64,000 bases of DNA. Origin: Escherichia coli. GTDB taxonomy: Bacteria > Pseudomonadota > Gammaproteobacteria > Enterobacterales > Enterobacteriaceae. The notes beneath the pieces are model-generated. The model did no database searches. It was not told the origin of the DNA and saw nothing but the letters and a program-made list of their open reading frames with translations. Below are positions 23,846 through 25,041 of this stretch, piece by piece. Position numbers and translations under genes: made by a program. Position 1 is the stretch's first letter, and every line of letters begins with the position of its first letter. Location: NCBI RefSeq assembly GCF_002854065.1, contig NZ_CP024153.1; one strand, written 5' to 3'.

Positions 23846-25041
23846 GGAAGGTGCGAACAAGTTCCTGATATGAGATCATCATGTTCATCCGGAGCGCATC
23901 CCAGAGGGACATCATGAGCCATCAACTCACCTTCGCCGATAGTGAATTCAGCACTAAGCGCCGTCAGACCCGAAAATAGATTTTCCTCTCCCGCATGGAT
24001 CAGATTCTGCCATGGCAAAACATGGTGGAAGTCATCGAGCCGTTTTATCCCAAGGCGGGCAATGGCCGACGGCCCTATCCGCTGGAGACCATGCTGCGTA
24101 TTCACTGCATGCAGCATTGGTACAACCTGAGCGACGGTGCCATGGAAGATGCCCTGTACGAAATCGCCTCCATGCGCCTGTTTGCCCGATTATCCCTGGA
24201 TAGCGCCCTGCCGGATCGCACCACCATCATGAATTTCCGCCACCTGCTCGAGCAGCATCAACTGGCCCGTCAATTGTTCAAGACCATCAATCGCTGGCTG
24301 GCCGAAGCAGGCGTCATGATGACCCAAGGCACTTTGGTGGATGCCACCATCATTGAGGCACCCAGCTCTACCAAGAACAAAGAGCAGTAACGCGATCCGG
24401 AGATGCATCAGACCAAGAAAGGCAATCAGTGGCACTTTGGCATGAAGGCCCACATTGGTGTCGATGCCAAGAGTGGCCTGACCCACAGTTTGGTTACCAC
24501 CGCGGCCAACGAGCATGACCTCAATCAGCTGGGTAATCTGCTGCATGGAGAGGAGCAATTTGTCTCAGGCGATGCCGGATACCAAGGCGCGCCCCAACGC
24601 GAAGAGCTGGCCGAGGTGGATGTGGACTGGCTGATCGCCGAGCGACCCGGCAAGGTAAGAACCTTGAAACAGCACCCACGCAAGAACAAAACAGCCATCA
24701 ACATCGAATACATGAAGGCGAGCATCCGGGCCAAAGTGGAACATCCGTTTCGCATCATCAAGCAGCAGTTCGGCTTCGTGAAAGCCAGATACAAGGGGTT
24801 GCTGAAAAACGATAACCAACTGGCGATGTTATTCACCCTGGCCAACCTGTTTAGGGTGGACCAAATGATACGTCAGTGGGAGAGATCTCAGTAAAAACCG
24901 GAAATAACGCCAGAAATGGCGGAAAAAATAGCCTAAATAGGCTGATTCGATGTGTTTGCGGGAAAAAAATCGGCCCAGATCCGCGAAATTTTAATCAGCG
25001 AGTCAGCTTGGGAAGAAATGACCTGCTTATTCGCACCTTCC
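23846..25041 (+). mobile_element. IS5-like element (about 1196 bp)
   Basis: Ends ggaaggtgcgaacaag ... cttattcgcaccttcc; InsH-type transposase frame inside. Confidence 0.85.
23914..24894 (+). pseudogene. IS5 transposase (InsH-like) with two in-frame stop codons
   Basis: [34 protein letters not shown]... ...[19 protein letters not shown]...; TAG at 23977-23979 and TAA at 24388-24390 in one continuous frame. Confidence 0.85.

Follow-up and report, generated by a model that had tools for sequence, protein, structure and literature searches.

The insertion sequence (IS) at positions 23846-25041 (plus strand) of the analysed window, a 64,000-nucleotide stretch of Escherichia coli contig NZ_CP024153.1, is very probably a transposition-dead, ISKpn26-like fossil that is passively inherited, sits at a rearrangement junction, and now acts as a homology patch for recombination. 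The element is a defective member of the IS5 group, 1196 bp long, and was delimited by alignment and by 100% identical copies in plasmids. A first-pass annotation had read it as an IS5-like element with no target duplication and with a transposase inactivated by two nonsense mutations of one base each. Translation, alignment, and the flanking sequences all support this main reading. In itself the element is a routine IS pseudogene that is already known, as the RefSeq/PGAP annotation already describes it as "IS5 family transposase, internal stop". It resembles other decayed IS pseudogenes in IS26-assembled resistance regions, in which the transposase is inactivated, inheritance is passive, the remnant is a recombination substrate, and PGAP reports an 'internal stop'. 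Many of those remnants are truncated, whereas the window copy is full-length with intact ends; otherwise there is no difference of principle.

The bounds proposed in the first-pass annotation are exact, with both 16-bp terminal inverted repeats intact at those ends. The left repeat, GGAAGGTGCGAACAAG, lies at 23846-23861 on the plus strand, and the right repeat, GGAAGGTGCGAATAAG (reverse complement), lies at 25026-25041 on the minus strand. The two repeats, both found by motif match in the window, are identical at 15 of 16 positions. In the whole 64-kb window the terminal-repeat motif has 2 matches, compared with 0.06 expected by chance, and both are the ends of this element. The same scan detected no further IS5-group copy in the 64-kb window. 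With a length of ~1.2 kb and ~16-bp repeats beginning GGAAGGTGCGAA, the element has the size and ends of the IS5 group of the IS5 family.

The element carries an InsH-type transposase pseudogene of 326 codons plus stop at 23914-24894 (plus strand), which was identified by translation and a domain search. Translation of this region confirms the two reported nonsense codons, TAG at codon 22 (23977-23979; G>T at 23977) and TAA at codon 159 (24388-24390; C>T at 24388). The references for the alignment were full-length copies from public plasmids: the PGAP-annotated ISKpn26 copy in Klebsiella pneumoniae plasmid pCMC307M_P3 (L002), the IS5 copy in pC0044 (L003), and a variant in the K. grimontii plasmid pRHBSTW-00555_2 (L004). 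All three carry G at 23977 and C at 24388, that is, the sense codons GAG (Glu) at 22 and CAA (Gln) at 159. Both stops are thus one-base changes, and the IS5 copy has sense codons at both positions, as the first-pass annotation had supposed for IS5 InsH. The frame had also been called otherwise intact. It is indeed open apart from the two stops, but it has 5 missense and 22 synonymous codon changes relative to ISKpn26 as well. The missense changes are E29D, A219G, K249R, R274K, and R284Q. A219G (codon 219, 24568-24570) is found in this allele only and lies directly before the conserved Asp of the (A/G)DAGY motif in the DDE domain. From IS4/IS5 transposases generally, we take this Asp to be probably the second catalytic residue.

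When the stops are replaced by the reference residues, the protein displays DUF772 (PF05598) at residues 51-124 (E 3e-21) and DDE_Tnp_1 (PF01609) at residues 138-312 (E 4e-35). In other words, the repaired frame is the single InsH-type gene of the IS5 group. The frame as it stands in the window is not the uninterrupted frame of an autonomous element, being broken by TAG 22 and TAA 159. Stop 22 precedes every domain and stop 159 falls within DDE_Tnp_1, and as a result no single polypeptide can contain the whole of the latter domain. The two largest surviving open reading frames (ORFs), at 23995-24390 (131 aa) and 24403-24894 (163 aa), each match the NCBIfam model NF033581 (IS5 family transposase). 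We infer that no protein activity is left from the transposase gene. Could the first of these ORFs nevertheless have a function of its own? Truncated transposases inhibit transposition in other systems, and the 131-aa ORF (codons 28-158) survives with an ATG start, matches the N-terminal half of IS5-family transposases, and covers the DNA-binding DUF772 region, so it might be expressed as an inhibitor of IS5-group elements. Such a role is highly improbable. Immediately before 23995 there is no evident Shine-Dalgarno-like sequence, and nothing points to selection: the allele owes its invariance to its youth and clonality, and this part of it is freely replaced in recombinants.

Judging by the alignment, the closest named relative of the window element is ISKpn26, with a nucleotide identity of 97.2%. 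The K. grimontii variant is 93.4% identical, and E. coli IS5 is farther away at 90.6%. According to the ISfinder convention, two elements are the same IS if their nucleotide identity is above about 95%, and the identity to the PGAP-annotated ISKpn26 copy exceeds this threshold. ISKpn26 matches the window element in its length of 1196 bp, its terminal repeats, and its single 326-codon transposase frame. The window element differs in having two nonsense codons, the five missense changes, and a 28-substitution patch, and in lacking a 4-bp target duplication where the reference has CTAG/CTAG. Likewise, IS5 (InsH) shares family, architecture, repeat sequence, and a YTAR-type target with the window element, but it is 1195 bp long instead of 1196 bp, and the ends diverge most (21 differences in the first 100 bp and 27 in the last 100 bp).

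The differences from ISKpn26 are concentrated in one part of the element. Only 4 occur in the first 634 bp, two of which are the stops, versus 29 in the other 563 alignment columns (Fisher p = 1e-6). A divergent patch of 365 bp (24489-24853, plus strand), defined by the alignment, holds 28 of the 33 differences, most of them synonymous, and the last ~190 bp of the element are ISKpn26-like again. The 28 substitutions of the patch were absent from any other plasmid or E. coli copy searched, and the patch is the diagnostic marker of the allele. A single crossover joining both flanks and marked by this mosaic was considered and rejected, because the patch is internal and both ends are ISKpn26-like. 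The K. grimontii variant is an intact-length IS5-group element and a clean chimera, consisting of an IS5-like left half and an ISKpn26-like right half. Recombination and mosaicism between the IS5 and ISKpn26 types are common in the IS5 group. At the codon level, 29 codons differ from ISKpn26. Because 22 of these 29 differ synonymously, the lineage was under purifying selection for most of its divergence, until recently, and the knock-outs came late. The coding changes in the ISKpn26-like 5' 634 bp are E22*, E29D, and Q159* only, all of them non-synonymous, which fits late decay.

The window comes from an F-type plasmid. It covers an IS26-rich, typically IS26-assembled multiresistance region with RepE, merA, sul3, tet(A), aadA, and oqxB. 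At least 7 full IS26 copies and one partial copy are present in it (17678-60278). To the left of the IS lie, in order, IS26, a truncated mef(B), an SDR oxidoreductase gene, sul3, an IS256-family fragment, an integron integrase gene, and a spacer. The IS256-family fragment beside the integrase is the IS440 of the literature. To the right lie an hsdR fragment, small ORFs including an Xre/MbcA/ParS-type antitoxin remnant, a truncated TnAs1, and tet(A). Two truncated TnAs1 transposase segments were observed (26976-28796 and 32464-34053). The antitoxin-like ORF (26077-26442, minus strand) is a weak match to the Xre/MbcA/ParS antitoxin C-terminal domain (24.3 bits versus a cut-off of 24.5), and the 135-aa ORF next to it (26336-26743) matches no family. 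The ORFs at 26077-26743 and the hsdR piece resemble the remains of defence or toxin-antitoxin genes of a source genome. In other plasmids, tet(M) takes the place of sul3 to the left of the IS440 fragment. Carriers of the module are plasmids of E. coli, Salmonella, Shigella, Enterobacter, and Klebsiella. In one plasmid (JASEWJ010000002.1, 9035-12972; L012), an IS110-family element cuts off the module at window position 25680, and a 541-aa EptA/sulfatase (MCR-like) gene comes next, another link between the module and mcr genes.

The integrase gene (intI; 22646-23617, plus strand) encodes a full-length untyped integron integrase of 323 aa (TIGR02249, 446.7 bits, cut-off 265) and lacks a cassette array. 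The closest named relatives are from Aeromonadaceae (78-79% identity), and relatives in metagenomes reach 87-92%. The IS256-family (IS440) fragment cuts the integrase 5' region ~400 bp from the start codon (region 22244-23617). The exact integrase protein is indexed in 2,416 blocks of a public assembly collection. A paper on strain EC17GD31, whose IS is one of the 100% matches to the window IS, describes an 'untyped integrase-encoding intI' beside IS440-sul3 and leaves the dead IS unmentioned (PMC6834847). Papers on mcr-4 mention an IS5 element on ColE10 plasmids. Our search found no literature discussing this IS copy; only the neighbouring intI was mentioned.

How widespread is the allele, and does it occur anywhere else? 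The collections searched comprised 72,556 plasmids, 5,426 complete E. coli genomes, metagenomes, and species-representative genomes. Among the 72,556 plasmids, 57 records contain the IS at an identity of at least 99%, 59 contain the IS plus a 500-bp flank on each side, and exactly 59 contain the diagnostic right half at 99% or more, the next best match being 95.4%. In the 5,426 E. coli genomes, the patch allele is present in 29 records (28 at 100% and one at 99.8%; next match 95.9%), 27 of which carry the full context; one of the two exceptions was examined and is a recombinant that keeps the right flank. All 12 module loci checked base by base showed 0 differences and the same flanks. The metagenome scan yielded a single matching contig, again with the same module. 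Exact patterns specific to the patch (a 46-mer and a 31-mer) had 0 matches in the species-representative genomes. An intact progenitor of the allele was absent from the species-representative genomes, and the metagenomes gave the same module only. A search with the repaired transposase protein retrieved nothing closer than ~98% over the full length, in ISKpn26 clusters, which were built at 90% and could hide an exact twin.

The identical 1196 bp with both stops occur in E. coli, Salmonella, and Shigella plasmids from pigs, humans, food, and wastewater in several countries. This finding bears on the possibility, already raised in the first-pass annotation, that the stops are sequencing or assembly errors in a functional ISKpn26-like element. 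Each stop is a single-base change, so error is conceivable in general terms. However, dozens of plasmids that were sequenced independently, as well as a metagenome contig, contain the same 1196 bp at 100% identity, stops included, and PGAP flags the 'internal stop' independently in those records. The error explanation is almost certainly wrong.

The allele appears to have been immobile since its inactivation. Its full-length copies are always found in the same module, between intI and the hsdR fragment, and every inspected copy keeps at least one original flank; among the copies inspected in the plasmid, E. coli, metagenome, and species-representative collections, none had two new flanks. These observations also weigh on a model in which the element is non-autonomous but still mobile, through an ISKpn26/IS5 transposase acting in trans, through read-through of the stops, or through reassembly of the 131-aa and 163-aa products. 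In principle, an ISKpn26/IS5 transposase supplied in trans could mobilise the element through its intact repeats, and the same hosts very commonly carry active ISKpn26/IS5 copies. Furthermore, of the two sizeable ORFs that remain, one has DUF772 and the other most of DDE_Tnp_1. Against this model, no inspected copy of the diagnostic allele from the 72,556 plasmids and 5,426 E. coli genomes has lost both flanks, and every flank change is explained by a crossover inside the IS rather than by transposition. The codon 159 stop leaves DDE_Tnp_1 (138-312) whole in no single product, and the window contains no other IS5-group copy. Continued mobility of this kind is very unlikely.

The element is flanked by ACAG on the left and CTAA on the right, and these tetranucleotides do not form a 4-bp duplication, just as the first-pass annotation had noted. 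The right side alone is a YTAR site: CTAA at 25042-25045 (plus strand; TTAG on the minus strand) is a typical IS5-group target tetranucleotide. The intact relatives that served as controls have perfect 4-bp duplications, CTAG/CTAG in the ISKpn26 reference and TTAG/TTAG in another copy (L017_B). Immediately to the right, on the minus strand, lies an orphan internal fragment of hsdR, the gene for the R subunit of a type I restriction enzyme. The fragment spans 186 bp or 62 codons (25043-25228), is cut at both ends, and is annotated in RefSeq as 'missing N-terminus and C-terminus'. Its sequence ends ...GAT TTA G at the IS, that is, at the TTAG (CTAA) site. Close relatives of the 62 codons extend into longer HsdR-like fragments, one of which is named 'type I restriction enzyme R subunit' by its source, and more distant relatives detected by tblastn (30-34% identity, E 1e-8 to 1e-9) are located within genes annotated as HsdR. 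The region 25043-25228 is thus homologous to HsdR without being a complete gene of ~1000 codons. In a pairwise comparison, the 62 codons had no significant similarity to an EcoR124-type HsdR, and a PDB sequence search with the fragment returned chance-level matches only. No N- or C-terminal continuation of hsdR is encoded in any frame of 23000-27000. The type I system beside a chimeric copy of the IS at locus L017 was considered as the source of the fragment and rejected, because the two have no significant similarity.

The first-pass annotation had described this fragment as a small ORF on the opposite strand (MKGMVVVYDRDAC...) that starts at about 25228 and may be a gene disrupted by the IS. 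The ORF does run into the right end of the IS and is cut by it at TTAG/CTAA, but it is a piece of hsdR with a second breakpoint near 25228. The ATG there is therefore an internal Met and not a gene start.

The left flank has a different origin. A spacer of 228 bp (23618-23845), recognised by plasmid comparison, separates the integron-integrase stop from the left end of the IS. It has no relation to hsdR, and other plasmids, such as pLNU-11 and the mcr-4 ColE10 plasmids, also carry it next to the 3' end of the integrase gene. Because the flanks are unrelated DNA, the IS joins two unrelated DNAs, and this copy sits at a rearrangement junction. An attempt to find the ancestral sequence 3' of the integrase through relatives with 92% and 79% amino-acid identity was uninformative, as homology ends at the integrase stop codon. 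Nor did the searches turn up a parental hsdR::IS copy. The spacer also has, at 23669-23705 on the minus strand, a match to the Rfam JUMPstart family (RF01707; 34.1 bits versus a gathering score of 35, E 7e-5) that contains an ops-like motif, GGCGGTAGCGTG. With the convergent integrase stop only ~50 bp away, there is no room for an operon behind this match, which probably represents an orphaned part of the leader of an RfaH-dependent operon.

Direct evidence that the element takes part in recombination comes from three independent chimeras with active IS5-group copies, in each of which the crossover lies inside the IS and one flank has been swapped. The first is found in OU015719.1 and OEVT01000084.1 (L016-L018). 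Its first ~1010 bp are of the window type and include both stops, its last ~170 bp are true IS5, and the crossover falls between 24857 and 24891. The new right flank is identical at 300 of 300 positions to the flank of IS5 in pC0044. The second chimera is found in mcr-4.3/4.6 ColE10 plasmids (L022, L024, L025). In these plasmids, window-type sequence covers the 3' end of the integrase gene, the spacer, and no more than ~130 bp at the left end of the IS. The remainder belongs to a different IS5-group variant, which lacks the stops and shares 99.5% identity with a multi-copy element of an Aeromonas caviae record. This IS is truncated by an IS110-family insertion. In the third chimera, from an E. 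coli ET220 plasmid (L026), an ISKpn26 variant has supplied ~185 bp together with a new left flank. Codon 22 reads GAG again, but TAA persists at codon 159, and the right flank is the original one. Since each derivative has kept one original flank, these events represent homologous recombination and not transposition. The only activity detectable in the dead IS today is recombination: its 1.2 kb of homology allows crossovers with active IS5/ISKpn26 copies, and neighbouring DNA is exchanged in the process.

How did the original junction arise? The mismatched flanks would most likely reflect homologous recombination between two IS5-group copies. The original junction would then have formed in the same way as the chimeras. 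One alternative is that the then-active IS caused an adjacent deletion or an intramolecular transposition, in which case no second copy would have been involved. A canonical CTAA on the right and a non-canonical ACAG on the left are the expected residue of such a one-sided deletion or intramolecular event, and a second parental IS copy was not found in the species-representative genomes or metagenomes. On the other hand, recombination with IS5-group copies is documented three times for this very element, and the window element is itself a sequence mosaic relative to ISKpn26. The deletion or intramolecular model is a possible but somewhat unlikely explanation, and recombination between two copies is preferred.

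The history suggested by these comparisons would begin with an active ISKpn26-like member of the IS5 group that had a single transposase gene. Two late nonsense substitutions would have abolished the transposase and left the element unable to move itself. From then on, the IS would have been copied passively as part of a conserved block consisting of the IS440 fragment, intI, the dead IS, the hsdR fragment, the small ORFs, the truncated TnAs1, and tet(A), and IS26 and plasmids would have spread this block among E. coli, Salmonella, Shigella, and others.

For annotation, the element should be labelled as an IS pseudogene, and the flanking 62-codon ORF should not be called a gene. The two stops together with the 24489-24853 patch form a clonal marker for one intI/IS/hsdR junction. 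This marker traces a resistance module that has sul3 or tet(M) on one side and tet(A) on the other. Recombination can erase the stops piecemeal, and one derivative is already without the first stop. A further, unlikely idea is that the dead IS is a recurrent recombination 'docking site' at which active IS5/ISKpn26 copies on other replicons fuse with the resistance module or exchange DNA with it. The chimeras would then be instances of such events, connecting the module with mcr-4 ColE10 plasmids in one case, with a type I restriction locus of an F plasmid in another, and with an EAL-gene context in the third. If the idea were true, retention of the IS would help to assemble multiresistance regions. 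The chimeras indicate that even a dead IS keeps reshuffling neighbouring DNA via homologous recombination. The overall significance of the element is small, and its value lies in its use as a lineage marker and as an example of a dead IS that serves as a recombination substrate.
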